Shown here: piece by piece, positions 19,535-42,283 of the stretch
Position numbering within the stretch: position 1 is the stretch's first letter
Layout: each line of letters starts with the position of its first letter
Source: Nitrosopumilus sp.
GTDB lineage: Archaea; Thermoproteota; Nitrososphaeria; Nitrososphaerales; Nitrosopumilaceae
DNA length: 64,000 bases
Reading direction: 5' to 3'
Assembly (NCBI GenBank): GCA_965205215.1
Contig: OZ242041.1
Location: 1,088,001 to 1,152,000, forward strand
Position numbers and translations under genes: made by a program
Notes under the pieces: generated by a model
What the model was told of the DNA's origin: nothing
Databases searched by the model: none
Seen by the model: only the letters and a program-made list of their open reading frames with translations

Positions 19535-19550
19535 GTGCAGAGAGTGGGAT
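19535..19550. repeat. att core, distal copy of tRNA-Leu 3' end
   Basis: Identical to 42113-42128. Confidence 0.9.
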
Positions 19551-20435: not shown

Positions 20436-20668
20436 GGGGAGAGCGCCCCTTGGACAGGGTGAGGCGGGGATCATTGATGGCAGGCGCGTCCTGACTGCCC
20501 GTCAGTGGATCCGAGTCCTCTATGATTTCCAGAGGTAGTTCGGGGGCGTCCCTGTCGTGCTTTGCATTGCTCATGCGCTTCTTACGTCTGCCTGCAATTT
20601 AAGAGTTTGAGAGTCGATGGCTAGAAGGATCGGAGAACACGCCATCTTGAACGCAAGCTAGGGAGCTA

Positions 20669-21070
20669 GTGGATACGATGACTCAAGCACAAATGGTAAC
20701 GTATAATCAGGACGGTTCGCGCGCAGCTAACATGTCAAGACGGCGGCACAAGACCGCCGGCTTTGCACAAGTGCTGGAGGGGCTGCGCAAGACGGCAGGC
20801 AGCAACGGCGCCACGAAGGGCAGACTGTTTGAGAGGCTGATCCAGTCGTTCCTGCAGGAGTATGACCTGTACCGCAGGAGGTTCCGCCAAGTGTGGCTGT
20901 GGGACGAGTACCCCGACAGGGACGGCAGGACGGACTTTGGCGTTGTTCTGGTGGCAGAGGAACACGACGGTATGAGGTGCGCCATACAGTGCAAGTTCTA
21001 TGCAAAAAAGACGCTAGCAAAGTCTGACATTGACAGCTTTTTGGAGGCCGCATCAAGAAGCGGGATCTAA
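20669..21070 (+). pseudogene. N-terminal Mrr-like nuclease fragment of a type ISP-like restriction-modification/helicase enzyme
   Basis: KGRLFE.L...VWLW.EYP...D.G..LVA.....AIQCKFY....L.KSDIDSFL matches LlaGI/LlaBIII-type N-termini; canonical GIDLV reads GVVLV; ends abruptly at a copy of the island-end sequence. Confidence 0.75.
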
Positions 21071-22130: not shown

Positions 22131-22742
<612 letters not shown>

Positions 22743-22743
22743 T

Positions 22744-25700: not shown

Positions 25701-28700
25701 GACGGTCACCCTCGACGGCACGGGCTCCGCCGGAGACGGCATAACCTACAACTGGAACCAGGTATCGGGCCCCGACTCAGGGGTCGATCGCCGCGGTTCC
25801 GCGCGAACCACCTTTGCCGCCCCGGAGGGCCCCGCGACCCTCGTGTTCGAGCTTACCGTATCTGGGAGGGGGCAGAATGTCGATGATGACGATATCGATC
25901 CTGAGCGGGTGGACACCGTCACGGTCACAGTCCTGGCGCCCGCCAAGGCCGACGCGGGGCCCGACCTGGACGTGCTCCCGGGCGACACGGTAACCCTCGA
26001 CGGCTCAAACTCGACGGGCGACGGCCTCACCTTTTCCTGGGAGCAGACGGGCGGCGGCGCAGACGTCGTCCTGAACCCTGTAAGGCTCGCGCCGGCGGGC
26101 GGCCTGCCGTCTGATGACCCCGACCACGCGGCCGCCCCAGCTGACCCGTCCGACATCGCCATCTACGCGCCGACGTCGGCGTCCGCCGCCGGCCGCACAC
26201 ACGCCGTGGTCCCCTCGTTCTCCGGCGACGCCGTCCACGTGATCGACCTGTCGGACCCCGCCGCGCCCGCAGCCACCGACTTGATCGACGCCAAGAGCGG
26301 CATCCTGCTCAACGGCGCCACGGACGTCGCCGTCTTCCACATAGACGGCCACCCCTACGCCGCCGTCGCCTCGTTCTTTGACAACGCCGTCCAGATACTC
26401 TACATCAGCGATCCCGACAGCATAACACACGGGGGCAACATACGAGACGGCACGTCCCTCAAGCTTGAGGGCGCCAGCGGCATCGCCACCTTCGAGGCCG
26501 GCGGCCTCCCCTACGCCGCCGTCGCCTCGTCCATAGACAACGGCGTCCAGCTGATAGACCTGACCAGTCCCGAGGGCCCAGCGGCGGAGGGCAGTATCGC
26601 CGACACGGGCTCCACCCTGCTTGAGGGCGCCACCGCCATCGCCACCTTCGAGCACGGCGGCCGTACGTACGCCGCCGTCGCCTCGTACATAGACAACGGC
26701 GTCCAGCTGATAGACGTGTCCGACCCCTCAAGACCGCGGGCGGCGGGCCATCTTGCCGACGGCGGCTCCACCCTGCTCGGCGGCGCCAGCGGCATCGCCA
26801 CCTTTGACATATCGGGTACCGCATACGCCGCCGTCGCCTCGTACATAGACAACGGCGTCCAGCTGGTAGACGTGTCCGACCCCGGAAACCCGCGGGCGGC
26901 GGGCCGGCTCGCCGACAACGGCACCCTCCTGCTCGACGGCGCCAGCGACATAGCCGTCTTCGAGGCCGGCGGCCGCACCTACGCCGCCGTCGCCTCGTCC
27001 GAGGACGACGGCGTCCAGATGATCGACCTTACGGACCCCCAGAACCCGAGGCCGGTGCGCGGCCTTCCCAACGCGGGGTCACTCCTGCTTGACGTCGCGA
27101 GAAACATAGCGGTCTTCGGCGCGGGGACGGGCACCTACGCGGCCGTCGCCTCGCCGGACGGCGTCCAGATCATCGACGTCCTGGATTTTGCCGCCCCCTA
27201 CTTCACCGCCCCCGCCACCCCGGGCACCCTGAACTTTACGCTCACCGTGACGGATCCGCTGTCCCAGACGGACGAGGACGCGGTGACCGTAACGGTATTC
27301 GAGCCCCCGCGGGCCGACGCCGGCACGGACAGGCTGGTCGCCCCGGGTGACACCGTCGCGCTGGACGGCTCGAACTCCACGGGGGGCGGCCGCCTCTCCT
27401 TTTCGTGGGAGCAGACCGGCGGCGGCTCGGACGTCGACCTGGACCTTGAGACCCTCCTTGCGGCGGGCCGCGTACCGGACGGCCGCACCCTCGAGCTTGA
27501 CGGCGCCCGCGCCGTCGACATATTCAGGGCCGGGTCGGGCGGTGACGCCCGCACGTACGCCGCCGTCGCCTCGTTCAACGACGACGGCGTCCAGCTCCTA
27601 GACATTACGGACCCCGCAGACCCGCGGCCGGCCGGCCGCGTACCGGACGGCGCCTCCACCCAGCTCAACGGCGCCCGCGGCATAACAGCCTTCGAGCGCG
27701 GCGGCCACACGTACGCGGCAGTCACCTCGCTGTATAGCGACGGCCTCCAGATAGTCAACATGTCCGACCCCGACGACCCGCGGGGTGTGGGCCGCCTCCG
27801 AGACACGGGCGCCACCCTGCTTGACGACCCCTACGGCGTCGCCACATTCGAGCGCGGCGGCCGCACGTACGCCGCGGTCGCCTCCCAGTTCGCAGACGGC
27901 GTCCAGATAGTCGATTTGTCCGACCCCTCAAGACCGCGGGCGGCGGGCCAGATAGAAGACGACGCCTCCACCCTGCTCGACGGCGCCAGCGGCATCGCCG
28001 CCTTCGAGCGCGGCGGCCGCACGTACGCGGCCGTCACCTCGTTGCATAATGCCGGCCTCCAGCTGATAGACGTGTCCGATCCCTCAGACCCGCGGGCGGC
28101 GGGCCAGATACGGGACAACAGCACCCTCCTGCTCGCCGGCGCGTACGGCATCGCTACCTTCGACATATCGGGCACCACCTACGCCGCCGCCGCCTCGTTC
28201 TCTGACAACGGCGTCCAGCTCATAGACGTGTCGGATCCCTCAGACCCGCGGGCGGCGGGCCACATACGGGACGGCGGCACCCTAGAGCTCAGGGGCGCCC
28301 AGGACATCACCGTCTTCGAGCACGGCGGCCGCACGTACGCGGCCGTCGCCTCGTTCCACGACGACGGCGTCCAGCTCATAGACGTGTCAGACCCCGCAGA
28401 CCCGCGGGCGGCGGGCCGGATAAAGGACGCCGGCCCCACCCTGCTTGACGGCGCCGCCGGCATCGCCGCCTTCGAGCACGGCGGCACCGTATACGCGGCC
28501 GTCGCCTCGGAACGCGACGACGGCGTCCAGCTGGTTCCGCTCTTCTCCCCGGCCGCCGCCCATTTCACCGCCCCGGAGCCAGGGCCGGAGGTCCTCGAGT
28601 TTACGCTTACCGTCACCGACTCGGTATCACAGGAGGACGCCGACACGGTGGCCATAACAGTCCAGGCCCCCCCGACGGCCGACGCCGGCGCCGACCGGCT

Positions 28701-31062
28701 GGCGGGCCCGGGCCAGACGGTGGTCTTGGACGCGTCCGGCTCGGAGGGCACCGGCATCACCCACTCGTGGGAGCAGACGGGGGGCGAAGCCGGCGTGACG
28801 CTGGGTTTGGGCCCCCCCGAGCCGGCGGGCCGGCTCGCCGGTCTGGGCCCCCACACGATCGACGGCGCGTACGAGGCCGCCCTCTTCGAGCATAACGGCG
28901 CCACGTACGCCGCCGCCACCGCGTCGTACGGCGACGCAGTCTGGATCGCCGACCTCTCCGACCCCGACAGCCCGCGGGCCGCCGGCCTCCTGGCAGACAA
29001 CAGCACACTCCTGCTTGACAACGCCCGCGGCATCGCCGCCTTCGAGCACAACGGTACAACGTACGCCGCCGTCGCCTCACGCACAGACCACGGCGTCCAG
29101 CTGATAGACCTCTCAAACCCCTCAGACCCGCGGGCGGCGGGCCGTATCGCCGACAACGGCACCCTCCTGCTCTACGGCGCGTTTGACATCGCCCTCTTCG
29201 AGCATAACGGCGACACCTACGCCGCCGTCGCCTCACGCGTAGACTACGGCGTCCAGCTGATAGACCTCTCCGACCCCTACCATCCGCGGGCGGCGGGCCA
29301 CATACGCGACACGGACTCCACACTGCTCCGCGGCGCGTGGGGCATCGCCACCTTCCACATATCGGGCGCCCCCTACGCCGCCGTCACCTCAGAATTTGAC
29401 CACGGCGTCCAGCTGATAGACCTCTCCGACCCCGACAGCCCGCGGACGGCGGGCCGGATAGGGGACAACGGCACCCTCCTGCTCCACGGCGCGTTTGATG
29501 TAGCCCCCTTCGAGCACGGCGGCGCCACGTACGCCGCGGTCACCACGTTCAACGAAGGCGGCGTCCAGCTGATAGACCTCTCCGACCCCGACAGCCCGCG
29601 GGCGGCGGGCCAGATACGGGACAGCGGCTCCACCCTGCTTGACACACCCAACGGCATCGCCGTCTTCGGGCATGGCGGCCGCACCTACGCCGCGGTGGCC
29701 GAATTTGACGGCCACGGCGTCCAGCTGATAGACCTCTCCGACCCCGACAACCCGCGGGCGGCGGGCCAGATACGGGACAGCGGCTCCACCCTGCTCCGCG
29801 GCGCCCAGGGCGTCGCCACATTCGAGTCCGGCGGCGCCACGCACCTCGTCGTCACCGGGTTTCATGACGATGCCGTCCAGCTCCTCCGCATCCCGGGCAC
29901 GGCGTTCACCGCCCCGGGCTCCCCCGGCCCCCTCGAGTTTACGCTCACCGTGACGGACTCGCAGAACCAGACGGACACCGACACGGTGACAGTGACGGTC
30001 CCGCACCCGCCGACGGCCGACGCCGGGGGGGACCGGACGGCCGCCCCGGGCCAGACGGTCACGCTGGACGGCTCGAAATCCGCGGGGACGGGCCTCGCCT
30101 ACTCATGGAACCAGACGGGGGGCGCCCCGGTGGCCCTGGAGACCGTCCGCCCCCGGACGGCGGGCGGCCTGCAGGGCGGCGACTTTTCGGCGAGATTCGG
30201 CAACAGCTACGTCGACACCTTCGAGGCGTCCGGCTCCACGTACGGCGCGGTCGCCTCGGCCTTCGGCGAGGGCGTCCAGCTGATAGACCTGTCCGACCCG
30301 CACAACCTGACGGCCGCGGGCCGCCTGATGGACGGGGACGCCCCCGCCGGCGAGCTCCTGCTTACAGGGACGTACGGCCTGGACGTGTTCGAGGCCCGCG
30401 CCCCGGGCGCCGCCGCTAAAACCTACGCGGCCGTCGCCTCGGAGCGCGAGGACGGCGTCCAGCTCATCGATTTGTCCGACCCCGACAACCCGAGGGCGGC
30501 GGGCCGGATCGGGGACAACAGCACGCTCGAGCTCGACGGCGCCCGCAGCGTCGCCGCCTTTTACATATCGGGCGCGGCGTACGTCGCCGTCGCCTCGCCT
30601 AACGACGACGGCCTCCAGCTCATAGACATGTCGGATCCCGGTAGCCCGCGGGCGGCGGGCCGGATCGCGGACACCGAGCCTGACGGCGCGGCCGTCCCCC
30701 CCATAACGGTCAACAACGAGCTCCTGCTTGACGGCGCCAGCGGCGTCGCCGTCTTCGAGGCAGGCGGCCGCACCTACGCCGCGGTCGCCTCGTTCCACGA
30801 CGACGGCGTCCAGCTGGTAGACGTGTCGGACCCCGCAAACCCGCGGCCGGCGGGCCGCATCGGGGACACCGAGCCTGACGGCGCGGCCGTCCCCCCCATA
30901 ACGGCAGAAAGCGAGCTCCTGCTCAACGGCGCCTACGGCATCGACGTCTTCGGGGCGGGGTCCGGGGTATACGCGGCCGTCGCCTCGCAATTAGACCACG
31001 GCGTCCAGCTCATAGACGTGTCGGACCCCTCAGAACCCGAGGGCCGCCGGCATGATATCTGA
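22744..31062 (+). CDS. Giant secreted LVIVD-repeat/PKD-domain surface protein, 5' part (frameshift at ~31030)
   Basis: Signal peptide; dozens of ~48-aa repeats ATFEHGG.TYAAVAS..DDGVQLIDLSDP..PRAAG; PKD-like modules ADAG.D..V..G.TVTLDGS.S...YSWEQTGG...FTLTVTD. Confidence 0.88.
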   Translation: MRLRTAAACLACVLAAAAVAWGVPPGTLAEPAFAQPGELTIIRPVGHISDNSTLLLDRSYDIAAFEHGGHAYAAVTAFRDHGLQIVSLADPHSPRAAGQLNDTESTLLKTPFAVAAFEHGGHAYAAVISSPSSGERGLQVISLADPDNPRAAGRLNDTGDTLLRDALDMATFEHNGATYAAVASFGEHGVQIVDLSDPADPRAAGRIGDDDGALELRGATAIATFEHNGATYAAVASQDDDGVQIINMSNPADPRAAGRIGDGDGGAYLSGAAGIATFGHGNRTYAAVTAADDAAVQLIDLSDPQNPRAAGSIIDGDFGDSEEHHVLLEGAAAIATFEAGGHTYAAVTSTAEPGVQFVDLSDPADPRAAGRIRDTGSTLLFGAISIAVFEAGTATYAAFASAEEDGVQVILLDGGNRTYADAGPDLEASAGGTVALDGSGSTGRDIDYSWEQTGGTPAVPLAGAGTPSPSFEAPGESAVLRFTLTVTDGANRTDTDTVTVRVHAATRADAGPDLYVEPGATVALDGSNSAGRGIDYSWEQTAGTPAVPLSGAATPSPSFEAPGAAATLEFTLTVTDASSQSDTDAVTVFVRTPQGQAFGPAGHYVTFDDDGDPIRVADLAVFEVSGSPYAVAAIPLGSSLQIVDLSNPASPRAAGQIRDTGSTLLGAAAAVATFEAGSGAATRPYAVASSSADRGLQIVDLSNPASPRAAGQIRDTNSTLLGGHRAIATFEVSGSPFAVALSSSSSGELGLQIVNLTDPQKPRAAGQLSADDSLILQTRLDDVTTFELDGAPFAAVTSLRTDGMVLMINLTDPYSPRMAGQLRDTGSTLLEGATAIAAFEHGGTVYAAAASSDDDGVQLINMSNPADPRAAGQIRDTGSTSLGAPEDIAIFELDGAPYAAVISKDEHAVQTIDLSDPQRPIPLDRLADDGSTLLLLPENIATFTVDTATYAAVTSGIEGGVQIVRLDAGGKGIAVAGPDQTVTSGQTVTLDGTGSAGDGITYNWNQVSGPDSGVDRRGSARTTFAAPEGPATLVFELTVSGRGQNVDDDDIDPERVDTVTVTVLAPAKADAGPDLDVLPGDTVTLDGSNSTGDGLTFSWEQTGGGADVVLNPVRLAPAGGLPSDDPDHAAAPADPSDIAIYAPTSASAAGRTHAVVPSFSGDAVHVIDLSDPAAPAATDLIDAKSGILLNGATDVAVFHIDGHPYAAVASFFDNAVQILYISDPDSITHGGNIRDGTSLKLEGASGIATFEAGGLPYAAVASSIDNGVQLIDLTSPEGPAAEGSIADTGSTLLEGATAIATFEHGGRTYAAVASYIDNGVQLIDVSDPSRPRAAGHLADGGSTLLGGASGIATFDISGTAYAAVASYIDNGVQLVDVSDPGNPRAAGRLADNGTLLLDGASDIAVFEAGGRTYAAVASSEDDGVQMIDLTDPQNPRPVRGLPNAGSLLLDVARNIAVFGAGTGTYAAVASPDGVQIIDVLDFAAPYFTAPATPGTLNFTLTVTDPLSQTDEDAVTVTVFEPPRADAGTDRLVAPGDTVALDGSNSTGGGRLSFSWEQTGGGSDVDLDLETLLAAGRVPDGRTLELDGARAVDIFRAGSGGDARTYAAVASFNDDGVQLLDITDPADPRPAGRVPDGASTQLNGARGITAFERGGHTYAAVTSLYSDGLQIVNMSDPDDPRGVGRLRDTGATLLDDPYGVATFERGGRTYAAVASQFADGVQIVDLSDPSRPRAAGQIEDDASTLLDGASGIAAFERGGRTYAAVTSLHNAGLQLIDVSDPSDPRAAGQIRDNSTLLLAGAYGIATFDISGTTYAAAASFSDNGVQLIDVSDPSDPRAAGHIRDGGTLELRGAQDITVFEHGGRTYAAVASFHDDGVQLIDVSDPADPRAAGRIKDAGPTLLDGAAGIAAFEHGGTVYAAVASERDDGVQLVPLFSPAAAHFTAPEPGPEVLEFTLTVTDSVSQEDADTVAITVQAPPTADAGADRLAGPGQTVVLDASGSEGTGITHSWEQTGGEAGVTLGLGPPEPAGRLAGLGPHTIDGAYEAALFEHNGATYAAATASYGDAVWIADLSDPDSPRAAGLLADNSTLLLDNARGIAAFEHNGTTYAAVASRTDHGVQLIDLSNPSDPRAAGRIADNGTLLLYGAFDIALFEHNGDTYAAVASRVDYGVQLIDLSDPYHPRAAGHIRDTDSTLLRGAWGIATFHISGAPYAAVTSEFDHGVQLIDLSDPDSPRTAGRIGDNGTLLLHGAFDVAPFEHGGATYAAVTTFNEGGVQLIDLSDPDSPRAAGQIRDSGSTLLDTPNGIAVFGHGGRTYAAVAEFDGHGVQLIDLSDPDNPRAAGQIRDSGSTLLRGAQGVATFESGGATHLVVTGFHDDAVQLLRIPGTAFTAPGSPGPLEFTLTVTDSQNQTDTDTVTVTVPHPPTADAGGDRTAAPGQTVTLDGSKSAGTGLAYSWNQTGGAPVALETVRPRTAGGLQGGDFSARFGNSYVDTFEASGSTYGAVASAFGEGVQLIDLSDPHNLTAAGRLMDGDAPAGELLLTGTYGLDVFEARAPGAAAKTYAAVASEREDGVQLIDLSDPDNPRAAGRIGDNSTLELDGARSVAAFYISGAAYVAVASPNDDGLQLIDMSDPGSPRAAGRIADTEPDGAAVPPITVNNELLLDGASGVAVFEAGGRTYAAVASFHDDGVQLVDVSDPANPRPAGRIGDTEPDGAAVPPITAESELLLNGAYGIDVFGAGSGVYAAVASQLDHGVQLIDVSDPSEPEGRRHDI

Positions 31063-34000
31063 CGGCGGCGCCCTCGCGCTCTACGGCGCCAGCCGCATCG
31101 CCGCCTTTGAGATCAACGGCTCCCCGTACGCCGCCGCCATGGGGCTCGACGGCGGCGTCCAGCTGATCGACTTGTCCGACCCGCAGAACCCGCGGGCGGC
31201 CGGCGTGGTAAGCGATCTCCCCCTGATAGCCAAGACCGGGAATGCCGCCGTCTTCGGGATTGGCACCGCCCTGTACGCAGCGGTCGCCGGCGGCGACGCG
31301 GTCCAGACCGTGTTCGTGGCGGACCCGGCCGCCCCCGCCTTTGACGTGCCCGACGACGCCGAACACGGCGGCACCCTCAACTTTACGCTCACCGTCACCG
31401 ACGCGGTGTCCCAGGAGTCCGCCGCGGATGAGGTCACCGTGACGGTCCTGGCGCCGCCGCGGGCCGACGCGGGGCCCGACGCGGTGACGGCCCGGAACCT
31501 GCTCGTCACCCTGGACGGCTCGAACTCGACGGGCTACAACATCGCCTACTCGTGGGAGCAGACGGCGGGCGCCCCTACGGTGACGCTCGCGGGGGCAGAC
31601 ACGGCCTCGCCCTCCTTCCAGGCGCCCGGCACCACCGCAACCCTCGAGTTCACCCTCACCGTCACGGACTCGGAGAACCGGACCGCGACGGACGCAGTCA
31701 ACGTGACCGTCCTGCCCCCGGCCCCCGCGGCCGACGCCGGGGAAAACGTGACGGTGGCCCCCGGCCATACGGTCGCGCTGGACGGCTCGGGCTCCACGGG
31801 CTCCGGCATCACCTTTTCGTGGGAGCAGACGGGGGGCGCCCCGGCCGTGCAGCTCACGGGCGCCGACACGGCCTCGCCCTCCTTCCGGGCGCCCGGCACC
31901 GCCGCAATCCTCGAGTTCACCCTCACCGTCACGGACTCGGCGAACCGGACCGCCGCGGCCGCCGTCCGGGTGACGGTCCCGCCGCCCCCCGTAGCCGACG
32001 CGGGGCCCGACCAGGCGGCGGCCCCCGGCGGCACGGTCACGCTGGACGGCTCGGGCTCCACGGGCCTCGACATCACCTTTTCGTGGGAGCAGACGGGGGG
32101 CGCCCCGGCAGTCCGCCTTGACATAGTCGACCCCCGGCCGGCGGGGCATCTCGCCGACACGGACTCCCTCCTGCTTGGCGGCGCCGAGAACGTCGCCACC
32201 TTCGAGCACGGCGGTACAACGTACGCCGCGGTCGTCGCGCTGTACGACGACGGCGTCCAGCTGATCAATTTGTCCGACCCCTCAATCCCGCGTGCGGCGG
32301 GCCAGCTTAGCGACACGGAATCCCTCGCGCTCGACGACCCGACTGACATAGCCGTCTTCGAGCACTCCGGGATACCGTACGCCGCGGTCACCTCGTTTGG
32401 CGAGGACGGCGTCCAGATAGTCAACATGTCCGACCCCGACAACCCGCGGGCGGCGGGCCATCTTATGCACGGGTCCTCGACCTTGCTCGAGTCCCCCACG
32501 TACATCGCCGCATTCGAGCGCAACGGCACCGCGTACGCGGTGGTCACCTCGTCATACGACGACGGCGTCCAGATAGTCAACATGTCCGACCCCGCAGACC
32601 CGCGGGCGGCGGGCCGAATCGGGGACAACGGCACCCTCCTGCTCGGCGACGCGAGCGACATAGCCACCTTCGAGTCCGGCGGCGCCACGTACGCGGCAGT
32701 CGCCTCGTTTGGCGAGCACGGCGTCCAGCTGATTGACGTGTCCGACCCCGCTGACCCGCGTGCGGCGGGCAGCATCGCCGACACCACCGGCACCCTGCTC
32801 AACAATACGTCCGGCATCGCCGCCTTCGAGCACGGCGGCACCGCGTACGCGGCCGTCGCCTCGCAGGACGACGCCGGCGTCCAGATAATCAACATGTCAA
32901 ACCCCGCAGACCCGCGGGCGGCGGGCCAGCTCGCCGGCACCGCCGGCACCCTGCTTGCCGAAGCCCAGAACATCGCCACCTTCGAGGCGGGCGGCCTTAC
33001 CTACGCCGCCGTCACCTCGCTTGAAGGCGGCGTCCAGATCATCGACCTCTCGAACCCCGAGAAGCCGCGGCCCGCCGGCCGGCTCGCCGCCACTGCCGCC
33101 GGCACCCTGCTCGCCGAAACCTACGGCATCGCCGTCTTCGAGGCGGGCGGCAGCACCTACGCCGCGGTCGGCTCTGTGCCCCAGTCACCCCGCGCCGTCC
33201 AAGGCGTCCAGATAATCGACCTCCTTGACCGCTCGGCCCCGACGTTCACCGCCCCGGCCGCCACCCCCGCGGCCCTCGAGTTCACCCTCACCGTCACGGA
33301 CGCGGGGAACCGGACCGCCGCAGATGCAGTCACGGTGACGGTCCGGGATGCGGCGTCCACTAACAGAGCGCCCGTCGCGGACGCCGGGGACGACCAGACT
33401 GTCAATGAGGGGGCCGCCGTGATCCTTGACGGCTCCGGCTCGTCGGACCTCGACGCGGGTGACACCATCGCGTACTCTTGGCGCCAGACTGCGGGCAGCC
33501 CTACGGTGTCGCTCTCAAACGCCACCGTGCAGCGCCCCGCGTTCACGGCCCCCGAGGTGTCGTCGGACACCGTCCTCGCATTCGAGCTTACCGTATCCGA
33601 CGGGTCCCTGTCGGACACCGATACCGTCAACGTCACCGTAAGGCACGTCAACCGCGCACCCGCCGCGGACGCCGGCGACGACCAGACGGTCACGCAGGGC
33701 GCCGCCGTGACCCTTGACGGCTCCGGCTCGTCGGACCCCGACGCGGGCGACACCATCGCGTACTCTTGGCGCCAGACGGCCGGAACGACGGTCACGCTCA
33801 CGGGCGCGGACACCGCAGCACCGTCGTTCACCGCCCCCGCGGGCCCCGCCACCCTCGTATTCAACCTTACAGTAACCGACTCGGCGTCCCTGGCCGCCCA
33901 CGACGCCGTTACGGTCGCCGTACCGGAGATGACGGTGGATGCCGGGCCCAACCAGTCGGCAACCGTAGGCGACGCGGTCACGCTCACGGGCACTGTGCAG

Positions 34001-36850
34001 AACGCGGGCAGCGGGGCCGCGTACCGGTGGACCCAGGACTCCCCGGCGGCCCCGGTCATACCCATAGCCAACAACGACACGCGCGTTGCCACCTTCACGG
34101 CCCCCGCCGTCACGGCGGACACCGCGTTCACGTTCCGGCTGTCTGTCACCGCCGGCACCGTCACCAAGAGCGACACCATTGCAGTCACCGTCCGGGACTC
34201 GACGCCCGCAAACAGCAAGCCCGCCGCGGACGCCGGAGCGGACCAGGCGGTCGACGAGAGGGGGGCCGTGACGCTTGACGGCTCCGGCTCGTCGGATCCC
34301 GACGGTGACCCCATAACGTACTCTTGGCGCCAGACGGCGGGAACTCAGGTCACGCTCTCGAACGCCACCATACAGCGCCCCGCGTTCACCGCCCCCGAGG
34401 TCACAACGGACGCCGTTCTCACCTTTGCGCTTGCGGTATCCGACGGCTCCCTGTCAGATACGGACGCCGTCAACGTCACCGTAAGGCACGTCAACCGCGC
34501 GCCCGTAGCCGACGCGGGGGACGACCGGACGGTAAGCGGGGGCGCCGTTGTGACGCTTGACGGCTCCGGCTCGTCTGACCCCGACGCGGGCGACACTATC
34601 GCGTACTCGTGGGCAAGCAATGAAACGACCCAGAGGACGCTGACCGGCCAAAACCCGGCGTTTACGGCGCCAAGCGTCACGTCCGCCACGGCCATCACGT
34701 TCACCCTCACGGTATCCGACGGCTCCCTGTCAGACACGGACACGGTCGTCATAACGGTGCAGGACGTTCCGCAGCCGCCGCCATCACCGCCGCCATCACC
34801 GCCGCCATCACCGCCGCCATCACCGCCGCCATCACCGCCGCCATCACCACCACCACCCGCGCCCGCAAACATGGCGCCCGACGCGGACGCCGGGGACGAC
34901 CGGACGGTGGACGAGGGCGCCCCCGTAACGCTCGACGGCTCGGGCTCGTCGGACCCCGACGGCGACCCCGTCACGTACTCGTGGCGCCAGACGGCGGGCA
35001 GCCTGGCGGTCACGCTGTCCGACACCACCGTACAGCGCCCGACGTTCACGGCCCCCGAGGTGTCGTCGGACACCGCCCTCACCTTTGCGCTCACCGTATC
35101 CGACGGGTCCCTGTCGGATACCGACACGGTCACGATAACGGTAAGGGACGCCACCTCCCCCGCGCCGCCGCCCGCAAACATGGCGCCCGACGCGGACGCC
35201 GGGGACGACCGGACGGTGGACGAGGGCGCCCCCGTAACGCTCGACGGCTCGGGCTCGTCGGACCCCGACGGCGACCCCGTCACGTACTCGTGGCGCCAGA
35301 CGGCGGGCAGCCTGGCGGTCACGCTGTCCGATGCCACCGTGCAGCGCCCGACGTTCACGGCCCCCGAGGTGTCGTCGGACACCGCCCTCACCTTTGCGCT
35401 CACCGTATCCGACGGGTCCCTGTCGGATACCGACACGGTCACGATAACGGTAAGGGACGCCACCTCCCCCGCGCCGCCGCCCGCAAACATGGCGCCCGAC
35501 GCGGACGCCGGGGACGACCGGACGGTGGACGAGGGCGCCCCCGTAACGCTCGACGGCTCGGGCTCGTCGGACCCCGACGGCGACCCCGTCACGTACTCGT
35601 GGCGCCAGACGGCGGGCAGCCTGGCGGTCACGCTGTCCGATGCCACCGTGCAGCGCCCGACGTTCACGGCCCCCGAGGTGTCGTCGGACACCGCCCTCAC
35701 CTTTGCGCTCACCGTATCCGACGGCTCCCTGTCCGACACGGCCACCGTTGTCATAACTGTCCGGGACGCGCCGCCGCCGCCCCCGGGCGCGGGACTGGGT
35801 CCGGAAAACGTCACCATAGTCACTTTATACAACGCCGCCATAACGGACGCGGCCGTGTCATCCGACGGCTCCGTCCTGATCGTGACCGCCACCACCCCCA
35901 ACGGCACCGGTACCATACTCTCGTACGACCTGCCCGTGCGCCACGACCCGGCGTCCGCAGTTCCGCGCAACGGCACGGTGGGGATCCCGGCAGAGTACGG
36001 GCAGCCCACCAGCGTTACCGTATCGCCGGACGGCACGAGGATGTTAGTTACCACGGAGGCGTCCGCTGGGGGCTCTTCCTCCCCCGCGTCCGCGCTGCCG
36101 CCGGCCCCGCCGGCCCCGGCCCTCCTCGGACGCGGCGGCCACGCGCCCGCGTTCCTGCCACTGTCGCCCTCCTCCCCGGCCGCCGGCATCGCGCCCCCGC
36201 ATACGGCGTCTTTCCACGACGGAGCCACCGCCACGTACATGCTCGGGTATTCGCTCTCCTCGCCCTTTGACATCTCGACTGCCGTCCTCTCAGATCCAGA
36301 CCTGCTCTCCCCCGGCCGGCTCTCCTCCCCCCCCGCCGGCGCGGCGTTCTCCGGCAACGGCACCATGATGTACGTCGCCGTCCCCTCGCCTGCAGGAGGC
36401 GGCTTCGTACGCTCGTACACCCTGGCGGCCCCGTTCGACCCGTCGTCCCGCGCCCCCGCGGCCGCCCTTCAGGTGCCGCCCTCGCGCGGCGCCATATCGG
36501 ACGTGGCCGTGTCCGCGGACGGTACGGTCATGCTCGTGACGGCCTCCGCCCCCGCCCCCGCCCCCGGCGGCGGCGCCATGCTCTCGTACGCCCTGCCCGC
36601 GCCCTTTGACCTCTCGACCGCGTCCCCGGCCCCGGCCGCGTCCGTGGACGTCCCGGCCGCGCGCGGCGCGCCCGTGGGTATAGCGTTCTTTGGCGACAAC
36701 GGCAGGGCCGCCCTGGTGGCGGCCGCTCTCGCCCCTTCCGGCGGCCAGCCCCCCTCGGCCGACGCCCCGCGCGCGGTGCCGCTGCCCGCCCATCCGGCGG
36801 CCGCGCCGCCCGCGATCCCGGATCTGCTCCCCCTGCTGGTCTGCAGGTGA
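31052..36850 (+). CDS. Giant LVIVD/PKD surface protein, 3' part (continuation in shifted frame)
   Basis: Begins mid-repeat with no signal peptide; same repeat families, PKD stack, (PPPS)n linker, divergent C-terminal domain. Confidence 0.85.
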   Translation: MISDGGALALYGASRIAAFEINGSPYAAAMGLDGGVQLIDLSDPQNPRAAGVVSDLPLIAKTGNAAVFGIGTALYAAVAGGDAVQTVFVADPAAPAFDVPDDAEHGGTLNFTLTVTDAVSQESAADEVTVTVLAPPRADAGPDAVTARNLLVTLDGSNSTGYNIAYSWEQTAGAPTVTLAGADTASPSFQAPGTTATLEFTLTVTDSENRTATDAVNVTVLPPAPAADAGENVTVAPGHTVALDGSGSTGSGITFSWEQTGGAPAVQLTGADTASPSFRAPGTAAILEFTLTVTDSANRTAAAAVRVTVPPPPVADAGPDQAAAPGGTVTLDGSGSTGLDITFSWEQTGGAPAVRLDIVDPRPAGHLADTDSLLLGGAENVATFEHGGTTYAAVVALYDDGVQLINLSDPSIPRAAGQLSDTESLALDDPTDIAVFEHSGIPYAAVTSFGEDGVQIVNMSDPDNPRAAGHLMHGSSTLLESPTYIAAFERNGTAYAVVTSSYDDGVQIVNMSDPADPRAAGRIGDNGTLLLGDASDIATFESGGATYAAVASFGEHGVQLIDVSDPADPRAAGSIADTTGTLLNNTSGIAAFEHGGTAYAAVASQDDAGVQIINMSNPADPRAAGQLAGTAGTLLAEAQNIATFEAGGLTYAAVTSLEGGVQIIDLSNPEKPRPAGRLAATAAGTLLAETYGIAVFEAGGSTYAAVGSVPQSPRAVQGVQIIDLLDRSAPTFTAPAATPAALEFTLTVTDAGNRTAADAVTVTVRDAASTNRAPVADAGDDQTVNEGAAVILDGSGSSDLDAGDTIAYSWRQTAGSPTVSLSNATVQRPAFTAPEVSSDTVLAFELTVSDGSLSDTDTVNVTVRHVNRAPAADAGDDQTVTQGAAVTLDGSGSSDPDAGDTIAYSWRQTAGTTVTLTGADTAAPSFTAPAGPATLVFNLTVTDSASLAAHDAVTVAVPEMTVDAGPNQSATVGDAVTLTGTVQNAGSGAAYRWTQDSPAAPVIPIANNDTRVATFTAPAVTADTAFTFRLSVTAGTVTKSDTIAVTVRDSTPANSKPAADAGADQAVDERGAVTLDGSGSSDPDGDPITYSWRQTAGTQVTLSNATIQRPAFTAPEVTTDAVLTFALAVSDGSLSDTDAVNVTVRHVNRAPVADAGDDRTVSGGAVVTLDGSGSSDPDAGDTIAYSWASNETTQRTLTGQNPAFTAPSVTSATAITFTLTVSDGSLSDTDTVVITVQDVPQPPPSPPPSPPPSPPPSPPPSPPPSPPPPAPANMAPDADAGDDRTVDEGAPVTLDGSGSSDPDGDPVTYSWRQTAGSLAVTLSDTTVQRPTFTAPEVSSDTALTFALTVSDGSLSDTDTVTITVRDATSPAPPPANMAPDADAGDDRTVDEGAPVTLDGSGSSDPDGDPVTYSWRQTAGSLAVTLSDATVQRPTFTAPEVSSDTALTFALTVSDGSLSDTDTVTITVRDATSPAPPPANMAPDADAGDDRTVDEGAPVTLDGSGSSDPDGDPVTYSWRQTAGSLAVTLSDATVQRPTFTAPEVSSDTALTFALTVSDGSLSDTATVVITVRDAPPPPPGAGLGPENVTIVTLYNAAITDAAVSSDGSVLIVTATTPNGTGTILSYDLPVRHDPASAVPRNGTVGIPAEYGQPTSVTVSPDGTRMLVTTEASAGGSSSPASALPPAPPAPALLGRGGHAPAFLPLSPSSPAAGIAPPHTASFHDGATATYMLGYSLSSPFDISTAVLSDPDLLSPGRLSSPPAGAAFSGNGTMMYVAVPSPAGGGFVRSYTLAAPFDPSSRAPAAALQVPPSRGAISDVAVSADGTVMLVTASAPAPAPGGGAMLSYALPAPFDLSTASPAPAASVDVPAARGAPVGIAFFGDNGRAALVAAALAPSGGQPPSADAPRAVPLPAHPAAAPPAIPDLLPLLVCR
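34775..34846 (+). repeat. 12-bp tandem repeat (CCGCCGCCATCA)x6 encoding (PPPS)n linker
   Basis: Read directly. Confidence 0.92.
34861..35745 (+). repeat. 309-bp tandem repeat x~3 (near-identical PKD domains)
   Basis: GCCCGCAAACATGGCGCCCGAC recurs at 34861, 35170, 35479. Confidence 0.92.
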
Positions 36851-37019: not shown

Positions 37020-37091
37020 CCCGTCCTAGTGCTGGTGCCCGTCCTAGTGCTGGTGCCCGTCCTAGTGCTGGTGCCCGTCCTAGTGCTGGTG
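37020..37091. repeat. 18-bp tandem repeat (CCCGTCCTAGTGCTGGTG)x4
   Basis: Four perfect head-to-tail copies, intergenic. Confidence 0.92.
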
Positions 37092-37653
37092 CCCGGCGTC
37101 TGTCAAAGTCTAAAGTCTACAAAGTCGAAGACATTGACGACACCCGTACCCGGATGCCCAGAGAGTCTACAAGACGCCTCATGTGGGAGCGCGGAGAAGG
37201 GGCACAAACGTGATGTGCTCTGGGCGCCAAGACATGTTGCGCGGTTGGTACGTGTGGCGGAGGCCGGCGGCGCGCCGCTGGCCGGACGTGCCTTTCGCGG
37301 GAAGCCGGGCCGCCAGGCCCGGCTGTAGTGGGAGGGGGCCGCCGCCAGGCGGCCCCCGGTTGTTTCGGGATCGTCGCGCGTGGGGAACGTTCGTTTTTCT
37401 ATATCTGTGGGTAAATGCGAGTCCTGGCGCCTGCCTGCCCGATGCGGCGTGCCGGGCCGGAGCGTTGCCCGGATGCATGTTCTGCACGTGTACGGTGCAT
37501 ATCATGCGTCTGGGATGTGCGGATTGTGCATGCCGGAAAGTCCCGGAAATGCAGATTGTGTACCGTACGCGTGCAGATTGTGCACGCGGGGGACGCCTTG
37601 CGGGCCGCGCTCGTGCACATTGGGCCTTTTATGCATACGGGAGCCTGCGGCGC

Positions 37654-37977
37654 GTGGAGCTTGAAGATGTCCAGAGAAAGGTCCAGTTCCGGCAGGGATC
37701 CTATGTCGTGACCATACCGCTCCGGATAGTACACGCGCTGGGAATCCGCAAGAGTCAGTACGTCAGGTTCGCCGTCTCAAAGAACAAGATCATCATAAAG
37801 CCCGTCGAGTCCAACATTACGAAAAAGGACGTGGCCGAGGCAGACCGGGACTCTGCCGCGCTCGACAGGTACGGGGAGCGGGAGGACGCCGGCTACATGG
37901 GGGACCTCGCCGAGGCCCTGGCGCGCAGGCCGGATGATGCGGGGTTCGGCCGAATCGAGAAGCTCAGGATGAAGTGA
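37654..37977 (+). CDS. AbrB/MazE/SpoVT-family DNA-binding protein
   Basis: RKVQFRQGSYVVTIPLRIVHALGIRKSQYVRF...IIIKP swapped-hairpin pattern; TTTTAT at ~37627 before GTG. Confidence 0.82.
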   Translation: MELEDVQRKVQFRQGSYVVTIPLRIVHALGIRKSQYVRFAVSKNKIIIKPVESNITKKDVAEADRDSAALDRYGEREDAGYMGDLAEALARRPDDAGFGRIEKLRMK

Positions 37978-38894
37978 TAGCCGAAGGCCTCTTTTTCTGC
38001 CCCCTCGTCCGGCCGCCCCCCGATTCCTTGTCCGGGGGCTCTCGGCCCATACGTGACACTCTGCCAAGTCCTGCTTGGTGTACGCTTTATCATGCTGTAC
38101 GTGACGTGTTCCGGGCGGTTCCGAGTCCAGCTTGCGGGTTACATCGCGGCGCTTACCGAGACCTCCCGGGAAGTCACAGGCCGCCAAGTCGGCCCGGTCC
38201 CTGCCCTTTTAGATCCGCTGGGTGGCCGTGCCGCGAACAGCCCTTACCTGAGATGTGCCCGGACCGTCTTTGTCGCCGGACCTGCTGGTGCCCGTGCTGG
38301 TGCCTGCCTGCCTGCCTGCCAGAGTCGACAAAGTCGCGCCCGGAGCCTGTTGTTGGAGGGAACAGCTGGCTTCGCTGAGGCGGAATCGACAGGATGGGTG
38401 TAACACGCCGACACGGCGGGCAATCTAATGCCAGTGGCCCGGCCGCTTGATTCGTCCGCGTCCGATGAAAATGGGAGCGCAGGCGCGAAGAGCCCCCACG
38501 ATACGGCCCTCTCGTGCAGGATCGGCGACGGGCGTCCGACCATCCCGGGACGGGAAAGACCCTGAGACTAGAGTTGCTGGATGGCCTGACCCACATCGGG
38601 GACGGCCGTGACGGAACGCGCCCAGGAGCGTGACATCGTGGACGGGACAGCCGCGCCAGATCTTGGGCCGCGTGACGTCGCGCGCGATGTTCTGACCCTG
38701 CTGCCCTGAAGTTGCCCGGGGCGGACTCGCGCCTGCCCGGTGGACTCCCGGCCCTGCCGGAGGGGCGCCGGCTTGGCGGCGCCCCGTATGTGAAACGTGT
38801 CGGGGGATCTCCGGTTGTCGTCTGGGTGACGTGCCAGTATGCGAGTGGTGTGTTCGACTCGTGCCGTCAAATTATGAGCGCGCTCTGGGAGCTT

Positions 38895-39072
38895 TGCGCG
38901 CCCGCCAGAAGCGCCAAAAGCGCCATCTGCGCGCCCGCCAGAAGCGCCAAAAGCGCCATCTGCGCGCCCGCCAGAAGCGCCAAAAGCGCCATCTGCGCGC
39001 CCGCCAGAAGCGCCAAAAGCGCCATTCGCGCCCTTTGCGCGCCCGCCAGAAGCGCCCTTTGCGCGCCCTTTT
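38895..39072. repeat. 33-bp tandem repeat (TGCGCGCCCGCCAGAAGCGCCAAAAGCGCCATC)x4 plus degenerate copies
   Basis: Units start 38895, 38928, 38961, 38994; ends just before the TTAAA box of the next gene. Confidence 0.92.
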
Positions 39073-39103
39073 CTCCTTAAACGGATCTGGAATGTCACCG
39101 ACC

Positions 39104-39415
39104 ATGGATGGAGGGAAGACGCTGGAGCGGAGGATTCAGCTGAGGGGGCGCTCCTTTGTGCTGACGATCCCGCGGGACGTGATGGAAAAGATGAAGATCC
39201 GCAACGGGCAGAGCGTAAGATTCCTGGTTGGGGATGGGGAGGTCGTGCTCAGGCCCATGAGCGCGGGGGCGGGCGACAGTGCCGCGGACTCCGCCGAACC
39301 CGACAAGTACGCGAAGGCCATAGAGGAGATGATGGCCAAGAACGAATCCGAAAGGTCCGGCGGCCGGAGTGCGGCACCCCGGAGGAGCAAGCTGGAAAGG
39401 CTCCAGATCAAGTGA
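39104..39415 (+). CDS. AbrB/MazE/SpoVT-family DNA-binding protein (paralog)
   Basis: RRIQLRGRSFVLTIPRDVMEKMKIRNGQSVRF...VVLRP; C-terminus SKLERLQIK resembles GRIEKLRMK of the first copy. Confidence 0.82.
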   Translation: MDGGKTLERRIQLRGRSFVLTIPRDVMEKMKIRNGQSVRFLVGDGEVVLRPMSAGAGDSAADSAEPDKYAKAIEEMMAKNESERSGGRSAAPRRSKLERLQIK

Positions 39416-39630
39416 CCGTGCCCGTCCCCCGCGTTTGCCGAAAACAGCCGAACCTGTCGGATCCTTGGGCCCTGAAACCGCACGCGGCCCCGCCCGGCCC
39501 CGCCCATGTGCCGCCGGATCGTCCCGCCGCGCCCCTGTCGTCTCCCGTGACGCCGCTGTACAGGCTGCCCGGCGCGCAGGCGGCCGGCCCGGGGCCGGCG
39601 GCATCCTACGGCCGCTGCCCGGCGCCGCTT

Positions 39631-40385
39631 CTGCCCCCGTGCCGGCAGATGCCCGGACTGTGCGGAGGGAGGAGCTGGCTGTAGCGTGACGGCAGCGACA
39701 GATCGTGATAATGGCGGTGCGGAAGGCGGCATACGCCGGGAGGCGCCATGGACGGCGCAGTACCCAAAAAGAATCACAGAGCTCTATGATTCTTTCTGGG
39801 TATCTGCCGCGGCCCGTTCCTGCCCCCGTGCCGGCCAGATGCCCGGATTGTATGGTGGGGGGGGGGGCGGAGCCGGTTAGCGTGACGGCAGCGGCAGGGG
39901 CGGACCATAGCATGCGGTGCGGAAAGCGGCATACGCCGGGAGGCGGCCCAGACGACGCAGTTACCCGGTAACAATCACGGAGCTTGTTGATCGTTTCCGG
40001 GTAACCGCCGCGGCCCGTTCCTGCACCCATGCCGGCCAGATGCCTAGATTGTGCGGGGGGCGGAGCCCATCATAGCGTGACGGCAGCGGCAGATCATGAT
40101 AATGACGGTGCGGAAGGCGGCATACGCCGGGAGGCGGCCCAGACGACGCAGTTACCCGGTAACAATCATAGTGCTCTATGATTGTTACCGGGTAACCGCC
40201 GCGGCCCGTTCCTGCACCCATGCCGGCCAGATGCCTGGATTGTGCGGGGGGCGGAGCCCATCATAGCGTGACGGCAGCGGCAGATCATGATAATGACGGT
40301 GCGGAAGGCGGCATACGCCGGGAGGCGGCCCAGACGATGTAGTACGCGGTAACAATCATAGAGCTCTATGATTCTTTCCGCGTAC
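39631..40385. repeat. Non-coding array of four ~190-bp units, each with a 42-46-bp palindrome
   Basis: Units start 39631, 39820, 40021, 40212; palindromes at 39761-39802, 39960-40005, 40151-40196, 40342-40385. Confidence 0.9.
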
Positions 40386-40529
40386 CCTCCTCCGCTCTTT
40401 TCCTCCACAGGCACTGCCACTCCGCAGGCCGGGCTGCACGCTCCACGCGTACGAGGTACCGGGGACATCAGCGGAAGAGTCCCCCGCCGGCGCCTCGTTG
40501 GAAAGTGGAATGCGCGTCCGCGCGCACGA

Positions 40530-40712
40530 TCAGGAACCGTTCTCCGTCCCGTCGCGCTCGTCTCCAAGGCCCAGGAGCGCCGCCCGCACGCGGGCCTGGT
40601 GGGCCCCCAGCGCCGCCCTGAGATCCGCAATCTGGACCCCCATGGACGCCATCTTGGATCTGATCAGCGCGATCTCGTCAGTGGAAATTGAGATTGAAAT
40701 CCTGTGCTTCAC
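40530..40712 (-). CDS. Ribbon-helix-helix (CopG-like) protein, 60 aa
   Basis: (M)KHRISISISTDEIALIRSKMASMGVQIADLRAAL = alternating beta strand, helix, G turn, helix; TTTAAA at 40735-40740 upstream of GTG. Confidence 0.55.
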   Translation of the reverse strand: MKHRISISISTDEIALIRSKMASMGVQIADLRAALGAHQARVRAALLGLGDERDGTENGS

Positions 40713-40887
40713 TATGCGTAGGCGCGCCTTTGCTTTTAAACACGGCATGCTTGCTTTTGCTTATAGCATGAAAAAACACGGCCGGCGGGTGCGGCAGGCC
40801 CTGCGCCGGTTCTGTCATGTGGTACGCGCCCCGGTCTCGGGGCGTGCGGGCGCGGGACGGGAAAACCGCGCGGCGGCTCCGCGCGGC

Positions 40888-42063
40888 CTATCGGCCGTCC
40901 CTCTTTGAGATCAGGACGTTCTCGAGTATCTCCCGCACCGACGCGTAGCTGCTCTCGAGCCTGGCAATGCGCTCGTGCAGGTCCTCGTTCTCCCGCTCGA
41001 TCACCCCCACCTTCTTGTCGCTTGCCTCGGCCTGCCTCTCGATGGCGCTCCGCAGTTCGGCCTCCTCTGATATGGTCAGGTTCGGCACCGCCGCCGCGTA
41101 CTGCTCCAGCAGGTACTCTTCGGGCGGCTTGTAGTAGTTCTCGGCGTGCCCCATCAGCTTTTCCACGTCGATGGTCTTCATGGTCCGCTCAGCGTTGGTC
41201 TTGAAGTACTTGCGGAACCCGTGGATCTGCTTGAACTCGTGCCCCGCCGCGCGCGCTCGCGTCTTGTTGCGCATGTTGAGCGTCTTGAGGAACCTTCCCA
41301 TCATGTTTGATATGGTCTTGGAGGCAAGGGGCGTGGCGGTGCCCGGATCCTTTCTCCGGCCCTTGCGGTACGGGTGGGTGTCCCAGGCGTCCCTTATGAG
41401 CGGCGAGTCGTCCGTCACTCTTTCGCCCGCCTCCTCGCGCATAGTCCTGTACCTGAGCAGCGCCTCGTGGCACTCGGGGCTCACAAACGTGACATACTCC
41501 TCTGCAGAGTCCCTGTACACCAGGAGGCGCGCCGCGCTAACGCCGCTGCCCTCCTTTGCGGGCACCGGCGTCACGTCTCCCCACCGCATGCCGTCAAACG
41601 CGCCCACCCTTATCCCGGAGCTTGCGCACACCAGGATGATGCACCTTGTGCGCGCGTCGGCCGCGTCCACCATGAGCCGTATCTCCTGTATGGTGGGGGC
41701 GCGGTCGCTTCCCGTCTTGCGGACGCGCGGCATTATCTTTGTGATTTTCTTCCACGATATCGCGTCCTCGGCATCGTTCATCTCAAAAAAGTGCTTGAGG
41801 GACACGACGGTCTGGTTTATCGTCGAGCCGGAGACCTCGTTTCTGCGCTCCTCCACAAAGTCTATGATGCGCCGCCGCACCCGCACCGGGTTTCTGCGCG
41901 CCTCCTCCAGCAGGTCGTCGGGCGCAATCCCGTTGGCATCCAGGAACTGGCACAGCTTGCGCGAATACCCGACCCTCGTCTCCTCGCTTTTGAACCCCTT
42001 GAGGAACTGTTGGACGGACTCTGACTTTACGTCGAGGGCCCTTGGCAGCGGCTGCCGGTACAT
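40888..42063 (-). CDS. int: Tyrosine recombinase / integrase
   Basis: SSGIRVGA, HGFRKYF, LMGH and ENYYKP catalytic motifs; C-terminal coiled coil; abuts tRNA 3' end. Confidence 0.93.
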   Translation of the reverse strand: MYRQPLPRALDVKSESVQQFLKGFKSEETRVGYSRKLCQFLDANGIAPDDLLEEARRNPVRVRRRIIDFVEERRNEVSGSTINQTVVSLKHFFEMNDAEDAISWKKITKIMPRVRKTGSDRAPTIQEIRLMVDAADARTRCIILVCASSGIRVGAFDGMRWGDVTPVPAKEGSGVSAARLLVYRDSAEEYVTFVSPECHEALLRYRTMREEAGERVTDDSPLIRDAWDTHPYRKGRRKDPGTATPLASKTISNMMGRFLKTLNMRNKTRARAAGHEFKQIHGFRKYFKTNAERTMKTIDVEKLMGHAENYYKPPEEYLLEQYAAAVPNLTISEEAELRSAIERQAEASDKKVGVIERENEDLHERIARLESSYASVREILENVLISKRDGR

Positions 42064-42113
42064 CACAACTAGTACGCATGCCCTGATTTTAAGCATTTCC
42101 GAATCATTTGTAG

Positions 42114-42209
42114 TGCAGAGAGTGGGATTTGAACCCACGAACTCCTAAGAGAAGGGATCACTTACGGATCTTGAGTCCCTCTCGGTTGACCGGGCTTCGA
42201 TATCTCTGC
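42114..42209 (-). tRNA. tRNA-Leu(CAA) with 11-nt intron at 37/38 (42159-42169)
   Basis: Acceptor GCAGAGA/TCTCTGC-A, anticodon stem AGGGA/TCCCT, long variable arm, T-arm GTGGG-TTCAAAT-CCCAC; 85 nt after intron removal. Confidence 0.93.
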
Positions 42210-42283
42210 GACTATGCGCCCGTACAGTCGCTATTTTTCAATTTCGATCCGCCCTGCTGCCCGTACCCGCCCGCAACAAAGGC

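Follow-up and report, generated by a model that had tools for sequence, protein, structure and literature searches.

What is the tandem array at positions 39631..40385 of the window (the whole stretch of 64,000 nucleotides of Nitrosopumilus sp. DNA analysed here), and what makes use of it? The array, to which no strand is assigned, lies between convergent gene ends: it is flanked by the 3' ends of an AbrB gene on the forward strand (AbrB1) and of an RHH-like gene on the reverse strand, and reading of 39416-40530 places it upstream of no gene. Tandem Repeats Finder, run on the window, gives a period of 191 and 3.9 copies for 39631-40384. The four head-to-tail units described in a sequence-only reading of this DNA were recovered with spacings of 189, 201 and 191 bp and with the shared blocks as written; in unit 3 the two arms of 21 bp match perfectly and occupy 40151-40171 and 40176-40196. 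Stops in all six frames bear out that no reading frame is kept across the units. The array is not a CRISPR array, as that reading had also held, given that the would-be spacers (the parts outside the palindromes) are 82–98% identical and the repeats vary. A 42-bp palindrome, hereafter PAL, closes every unit, with starts at 39761, 39962, 40153 and 40343.

The four palindromes are different alleles of one site, each without an assigned strand. Allele 1 (39761..39802) has 2 differences from a site in front of the pilin operon of an ICE in another genome, G100 (an A site, see below), and allele 3 (40153..40194) has 1 difference from a site beside the TFB-ParB genes in the same genome (a B site); the two have 9 differences between them. 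Allele 2 (39962..40003) is the most degenerate, with 8 differences from the nearest ICE site, and allele 4 (40343..40384) is a mosaic. The flanks of units 3 and 4 are 98.4% identical, yet their PALs differ at 5/42 positions. The 190-bp unit may have arisen by local tandem duplication of one PAL site with its flanks, followed by replacement of alleles. As a whole the unit has one further copy only in its own genome (G000), and a blastn search with unit 3 matched 0 of 60 relatives and likewise no plasmid. Units and flanks of the array were found piecemeal in contigs of four sequencing runs from three studies, the best of which is possibly the source sample itself. In another sample (record 27 of run X4), 1470 nt are inserted where a PAL begins on its left (window 39963/40153), possibly an insertion sequence that has entered at the TA end.

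The array is thus real, as had been claimed, but the palindrome is not confined to it. Its own genome holds 21 full sites at 11 loci, plus one half site. For 20 of the 21, an integrase, AbrB or pilin gene is no more than 3 kb away; such surroundings make up 6.3% of the genome, and their marker genes were partly chosen from the PAL loci themselves. Matching short att repeats were seen for tandem elements at tRNA-Met and tRNA-Ile, to which some of the clusters belong. Among 151 genomes of the genus (the own genome and 150 others) PAL occurs in five of the others, with 9, 5, 10, 14 and 1 sites. A sequence-only covariance model searched against 150 genus genomes gave strong matches in the same 6 genomes only and partial matches in 18 other genomes at E 0.002 or worse. 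The PAL pattern had 0 matches in viral contigs, and no spread into core genes was seen in the own genome. The sequence-only reading had set its functional proposals against a generic MITE or satellite scattered over many unlinked loci; the loci are indeed many and unlinked, but they are mobile elements and not random MITE-like positions.

A multi-unit structured RNA was one of the functions proposed for the array, on the strength of arms that differ between units and keep pairing. Arm covariation extends far beyond the window array: over 60 distinct sites, with kinship among them ignored, 90.1% of cells pair versus 79.9% in shuffles, none of 500 shuffles reaching as high. Unit 3 as a whole also folds well relative to shuffles (z -4.48). 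Both observations speak for a PAL that works as a folded single strand, be it an RNA hairpin, a cruciform or a single-strand origin. The signal, however, does not leave the palindrome. Unit 3 without its palindrome has a z of +1.22, worse than the shuffle mean, with 181 of 200 shuffles as good, and in an RNAalifold alignment of five units (the four window units and the one other genomic copy) two-sided changes occur at 4 pairs, all within the stem of the palindrome or at the foot of that stem; a weaker second stem, said to covary as well, has none. Rfam brought only the tRNA to gathering score within 36800-42300, and on the palindrome itself only sub-threshold miRNA hairpin matches, which leaves the unit with neither an Rfam match nor a covarying structure over its length. 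Neither strand of 39416-40530 has a TATA-like box, whereas the AbrB and RHH genes do have one. With no fold signal outside the palindrome, no such box and unrelated flanks around the palindrome elsewhere, the multi-unit RNA is not supported.

The geometry of the palindrome points in the same direction. From 64 pattern matches 63 sites were kept (52 distinct), one being left out for poor symmetry, and these give the half-site consensus TACCCGCAAA-nnn-TCA-tagag. C5 and TCA show no variation in 104 half-sites, that is, they are invariant instead of compensated. Agreement between arms is far above that of shuffled halves at positions 4, 7, 8, 11-13 and 20 (kinship again ignored), while positions 11-13 are each discordant in 11-14 of the 52 sites and the centre is often unpaired too; the central 6-mer has 16 variants among the 52 sites. 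A search for half-sites with no fixed spacing placed 38 of 40 matches in full sites, all pairs 26 nt apart, the remaining two being one lone half and one likely chance match. Because the spacing is rigid and bases are invariant, we infer that a dimeric protein on duplex DNA fits the palindrome better than a hairpin. A loop that never varies in length and frequent mismatches in the stem and centre make a folded strand of any kind quite improbable. That PAL is an ICE-specific protein-recognition element at all is likely. The sequence-only reading holds in so far as the palindrome acts in cis, is under selection and forms part of mobile DNA, with no named archaeal precedent found.

The array belongs to a 22.6-kb island. 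Its left border is a 16-bp attachment repeat (19535..19550, + strand) equal to the 3' end of tRNA-Leu(CAA) (42113..42209, - strand), of which 42113-42128 form the right attachment repeat. Cargo on the forward strand consists of a 209-aa ORF with no Pfam match together with an Mrr-like endonuclease fragment (19806..21070), and of two giant repeat-rich proteins of 2790 and 1932 aa (22690..36850), which are probably at the cell surface judging by their hydrophobic N-terminus. These giants are the main cargo and are built of 156-nt repeat units and Ig-like repeats. They are followed by an 18-bp repeat in four tandem copies (37020..37095, no strand assigned), common to other islands of the genome, and by two genes for AbrB/MazE-fold proteins, both on the forward strand. 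Type 2 (37654..37977), the type that follows a fused DUF8128-VirD4 in related islands, has a TGCA-core iteron region (37470..37635, +) immediately 5' of its TATA box, and type 1 (39104..39415), the type that follows VirD4 in ICEs, has a four-copy array of 33-bp iterons (38862..39070, +) in the same place. Beyond the PAL array, on the reverse strand, lie the small RHH-like protein (40530..40712; weak CcdA match, E 0.06), which is always found behind this type of integrase, and a tyrosine recombinase (40888..42063) with an XerA-like match below cut-off (E 3.7e-10), whose R, HxxR, H and Y motifs were read by eye as intact.

Between the attachment repeats there is neither VirB4 nor VirD4, the 2 VirD4 matches of the own genome lying elsewhere. 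With an integrase beside a tRNA gene, a duplicated attachment core and no transfer genes, the island matches the cryptic integrated elements that have been suggested to be ICE derivatives by loss of transfer genes (Krupovic et al. 2019, PMC6563490). A contig from run X5 joins the left flank straight to the tRNA end (of 14 loose letters 13 match), and from this empty site the island is mobile at population level. No excised-circle junction was present in the run contigs examined, and contigs drop rare forms. In G155 the same tRNA-Leu site is occupied by a 66-kb ICE with an integrase 93% identical to that of the window, of which the window island is the transfer-less counterpart.

The other function proposed was use of the palindromes by the proteins encoded beside them. 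Proximity favours this, an AbrB or integrase gene being near most clusters. The 66-kb ICE, however, carries no PAL1 (as we call PAL where it must be told from the palindrome of that ICE) together with the 93%-identical integrase and an RHH protein 74% identical, and therefore the neighbouring integrase and RHH are not the partners of PAL. The 16-bp attachment sequence differs from PAL, and PAL stands beside at least four integrase types. As for AbrB, its type is independent of the type of palindrome, AbrB variants occur in PAL-free relatives, and each has an iteron array of its own: by eye, a repeat array lies directly 5' of the TATA box in 18 of 19 AbrB genes, and its unit changes along with residues of the AbrB beta-hairpin. 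That PAL serves proteins which the island itself encodes (integrase, RHH or AbrB) is accordingly the least probable reading of all that we weighed.

Several classes of recombination site were also tried and rejected. A tyrosine-recombinase core site (dif, lox or att) does not agree with several integrase types, a PAL1-free element with the same integrase and 16 spacer variants. For a serine resolvase res site there is no enzyme, PF00239 having 0 matches in G000 with 12 of 14 control genomes positive. Protelomerase and integron attC sites find no such Pfam match on the recombinases scanned; an element with arrays of them would be broken up, and the polarity of the GTT/AAC ends is the opposite one. 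A palindrome array of another kind, near an ICE integrase of G144, has no further copy in that genome or in 4 others. Near the ends of two distant ICEs there is an array of a different, short palindrome with a TGTGTACTTT core (L168:9054-9180 in G144 and L173:9430-9660 in G203).

The AbrB genes form a pattern of their own. In intact modules they converge on VirD4, and they share a conserved LERLRxK tail and an upstream iteron array of 150-300 bp; besides the two window loci (38862-39070 and 37470-37635), AbrB-iteron loci were noted at L035, L036, L031, L058, L062, L069, L104, L084, L088 and L090. By analogy, AbrB, iterons and actin-like ATPase together recall the ParMRC or TraM systems, a protein of AbrB fold taking the place of the adaptor. 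Four islands (L060, L061, L064 and L108) encode an integrase, an actin-like ATPase, a fused DUF8128-VirD4 and AbrB2 and have no mating-pore genes; judged by gene content, this is an archaeal mobilisable-element type. PAL1 is absent from the last of them, L108.

Three complete PAL1 ICEs are available, two in the own genome and ICE1 of G155, and each has one PAL at each of two places: site A, before the genes for pilin, actin-like protein, DUF8128 and VirD4, and site B, beside AbrB3, TFB, ParB and a protein that we call Orf211. The two are 40-80 kb apart, their flanks are unrelated, and their orientation relative to each other is the same in all three elements. Among 7 A sites there are 5 whose closest B allele belongs to the same ICE or genome; these matched pairs have 0, 1, 3, 3 and 4 differences, against a mean of 8.3 over all A x B combinations. 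The exceptions are ICE2 of the own genome (8 differences) and one G100 site. In tRNA-anchored islands that lack mating-pore genes, PAL1 sites form clusters of 2-5 with mixed alleles. The gene content of the ICEs is of the thaumarchaeal type described in the main text of PMC6563490, with VirB4, VirD4, TFB beside ParB, and relaxase absent: Pfam and NCBIfam scans of the ICE genes found no relaxase, and the same general scans, as distinct from a dedicated ParA-family search, found no ParA.

The second ICE of G155, the 66-kb element at tRNA-Leu, provides a natural exchange of the site. A covariance-model search found no PAL1 in it; an unrelated palindrome of 30-40 bp, PAL2, is instead present once at A and twice at B. 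PAL2 occurs in 1 of 151 genomes, in 6 copies, 3 of them in this ICE and 2 inside PAL1 clusters of islands in the same genome. The presence of PAL2 at both A and B of one ICE implies that the site belongs to the identity of the ICE, and its copies within PAL1 clusters imply that islands collect sites of both resident ICE types. A lone further copy (L148, G155:C2:573172) has surroundings resembling the end of an ICE and is probably a remnant.

PAL2 also bears on whether PAL might be a self-spreading or neutral miniature repeat, its symmetry produced by template switching and not by selection. Presence in only 6 of 151 genus genomes would suit such a repeat, as would tandem amplification with unit lengths that differ between islands. 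The positions A and B are nevertheless fixed in every complete ICE and their alleles match, core genes are free of PAL, target duplications were not seen by eye, and an unrelated palindrome has replaced PAL at both positions of another ICE. Given PAL2, a neutral miniature repeat is unlikely, and taking everything together we hold it to be improbable, if a little less so than the folded strand.

For 34 proteins of the PAL2 ICE we counted changes at residues otherwise invariant in the PAL1 orthologues, 4 truncated or fragment rows being left out. Orf211 has 23% of such residues changed (8 PAL1 orthologues) against a leave-one-out control maximum of 7%, in comparison to 8% for ParB, 5% for TFB, 2% each for VirD4 and RHH128 and 0-4% for AbrB. 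A ParE-like toxin was also an outlier, at 22% versus a control of 5% with n=3, and two small proteins were close to their own controls. Homologues of Orf211 fall into three subtypes, and the subtype of the PAL2 ICE has a 24-aa deletion in the first (N-terminal) domain; the link between subtype and palindrome is drawn from this one PAL2 ICE only. Type I is represented by G000:C1:672334-672969 and type II by L105:172-765 of G155:C2. Within PAL1 ICEs, whole-domain distances of Orf211 do not follow allele distances significantly (Mantel r 0.30, p 0.10, n=8), and at the centre positions of PAL the ParB-like protein tracks as well as Orf211 does. The best candidate for the PAL binder, on these sequence comparisons, is the ICE-encoded Orf211, a predicted tandem winged-helix protein encoded after ParB. 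Two proteins, P0026 and P0027, represent the third subtype; for the ICE that encodes them a third palindrome is predicted.

Orf211 is predicted to consist of two winged helices, with a sequence match to IdeR/DtxR at E 0.004. Its structural model (pLDDT 72) gave Z of 6-8.8 to Cdc6/Orc, JetB, RepA-WH1 and PadR/MarR, Z values that are generic for the fold, and the best ESM Atlas score, 0.88, is taken as a lead only. The family is present in 45 of 301 genomes of the wider family; scans for the locus found 7 loci in genome contigs, 1 short metagenome contig and none in viral contigs, and none of these placed the type-II and type-III proteins P0021-P0027 on DNA. Its ParB-like neighbour lacks the GxxRxxA arginine patch, which we take to be the CTP-binding motif of ParB.

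Outside the PAL lineage, palindromes accompany Orf211 in another way. A palindrome of 38-52 bp lies at the Orf211 stop codon in 11 of 28 loci, 10 of these from one distant subfamily, with outer arms conserved, inner arms variable and a score above the maximum of 30 shuffles each; in G144, all 4 matches to the palindrome pattern are at Orf211 genes. These palindromes (L095, L097, L099, L100, L169, L170, L172-L174, L177, L178) occur once per element with element-specific inner arms. Their length varies by a few bases, and they could be terminators. A long stop-codon palindrome is missing in 13 of 24 Orf211 loci outside the PAL lineage (including G031, G081, G156, G157, G159 and G163), and no palindrome was seen near actin or TFB genes in the stretches read at such loci. 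In the four PAL-lineage loci of this test the genes overlap and the palindrome is missing.

The account that we favour, tentatively and at somewhat short of even odds, is that PAL is a centromere-like docking site for the Orf211-ParB complex of a helper ICE, collected by hitchhiker islands. Orf211 would bind PAL as duplex DNA, as one dimer with two winged helices per arm, which would recognise its outer 10 bp and its inner TCA, and the ParB-like neighbour would be recruited as its predicted partner. After excision, a transfer-less island might use the Orf211 and ParB of a helper in trans; docking would let it be segregated, or passed on to the machinery of transfer, and so gain in maintenance or transfer, and several alleles on one island would make several helper ICEs usable. 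The AbrB-iteron pairs beside VirD4 count against docking through Orf211, since the handle for transfer may equally be sought in them.

At both of its ICE sites PAL precedes the promoter of a transfer operon, and Orf211 resembles winged-helix repressors. PAL could for these reasons be the operator of a master regulator of the ICE, probably Orf211 with the TFB of the ICE, and the island arrays decoys that titrate the regulator of two transfer operons, with the helper ICE switched on or jammed as the outcome. The window array controls no gene, as expected of a decoy. The distance from PAL to promoter, however, ranges from 50 to 298 bp at A and from 76 to 190 bp at B, and in G112 an inversion has kept PAL with the TFB-ParB-Orf211 operon and moved it 5.8 kb from the promoter that usually lies downstream of it. 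In the distant subfamily the operon itself contains the palindrome, at the stop codon of Orf211. The variable promoter distance, the G112 inversion and an array upstream of no gene speak for a docking site that tolerates changes of position rather than for an operator at a set place, and we regard operator and decoys as unlikely, albeit second among the explanations.

Slightly less probable again is a cut site of the ICE transfer machine, nicked in the manner of an oriT or used for site-specific crossover, in which case islands would carry oriT mimics and the mosaic arms and flank swaps would be products of cleavage and rejoining. Flank types around PAL are variously combined, with a B site of G100 joined to an island-type flank; unit 4 is a mosaic, PALs diverge faster than their flanks, and multi-allele arrays match the staphylococcal oriT mimics described in PMC4652767. 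The G100 junctions sit near contig ends, however, and ordinary recombination within a shared 42-bp repeat can produce the same picture. Two symmetric sites per ICE, in constant orientation in the three complete elements, are not what a nick site predicts; a conserved asymmetric nick core was not seen, relaxase is absent among the scanned ICE genes and serine resolvase from the genome, and the central 6-mer is highly variable. Ordered by our own judgement, the centromere-like handle thus comes first, followed by operator decoy, cut site, neutral repeat, folded strand and own-protein site.

Known systems offer partial parallels to docking at a helper's site. In the staphylococcal pWBG749 family, non-conjugative elements carry 2-3 subtypes of the helper's inverted-repeat site (PMC4652767), and SmpO, a small helper-encoded DNA-binding specificity factor, is most diverged at its N-terminus (PMC8136818). 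PAL islands are similar in carrying mixed site subtypes, and the candidate factor likewise diverges N-terminally. Unlike that system, ours concerns archaeal chromosomal islands, a tandem winged helix in place of the RHH protein SmpO, a helper with two sites, up to 6 sites per cluster, and no relaxase or nick core found. Integrative islands carrying only an oriT, iOriTs (bioRxiv 10.64898/2026.01.13.699239), are alike in having an integrase, neither relaxase nor mating pore, and a cis-site in common with co-resident ICEs; they are unlike the window island in that the latter is related to the family of its helper (same integrase, AbrB remnants) and in that PAL is a putative oriT only. The word 'archaea' has 0 occurrences in the iOriT text. 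By analogy, PAL arrays may work like iOriT or oriT-mimic hitchhiking, with the same reservation as to oriT.

On the side of segregation, the AspA-ParB-ParA system of the Sulfolobus plasmid pNOB8, as presented in PMC5120986, has a winged-helix protein beside ParB and a palindromic centromere near the operon. Orf211 is similarly a winged-helix protein beside a ParB-like gene in an archaeal conjugative element, yet the site is of 42 rather than 23 bp, the protein has two winged helices, the gene order is TFB-parB-orf211, and an actin-like ATPase is in the module with no ParA found; the likeness of Orf211 to AspA is drawn at the level of description. Long-range silencing by KorB at OB sites on RK2 (PMC11790492) also involves a ParB-family protein and palindromic sites at varying distance from promoters, as here. 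The ICE ParB, unlike KorB, does not follow changes of the site and is without the arginine patch.

For thaumarchaeal ICEs, PMC6563490 lists VirB4, VirD4, pilins, prepilin peptidase and a TFB-ParB pair with no relaxase detected, and describes most integrated elements as 'cryptic'. The words 'oriT', 'AbrB' and 'actin' do not occur in its main text, which describes no cis-acting palindrome either; Orf211-like genes may be annotated in its supplements. In the main texts of the literature searched, no description of PAL was found. The present analysis supplies a site that is defined, a protein that may bind it and a naturally occurring swap of specificity within one genome (PAL1 with type I versus PAL2 with type II), so that DNA recognition can be put to the test with one pair of small proteins and one pair of oligonucleotides. 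If correct, the docking account would extend site-mimicry hitchhiking to archaea and would explain the movement of giant surface-protein and defence cargo among sponge-associated ammonia oxidisers (the habitat being taken from run labels). More speculatively, and with less confidence than in docking itself, these palindromes may be the first visible cis-handles of relaxase-less archaeal conjugation: each ICE would set its own 30-50-bp palindrome via a tandem winged-helix protein, and islands would assemble multi-allele key rings, along with two AbrB-iteron cassettes for two types of coupling protein, and be carried by whichever helper ICE is present.

Two further observations come from the own genome. 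Two elements stand in tandem at tRNA-Lys(CTT) (G000:C1:605449-703704), one an island of 24 kb that carries five PALs, the other an ICE of 74 kb. Giant proteins similar to those of 22690-36850 end beside PAL sites at G000:C1:996522 and 1222967.
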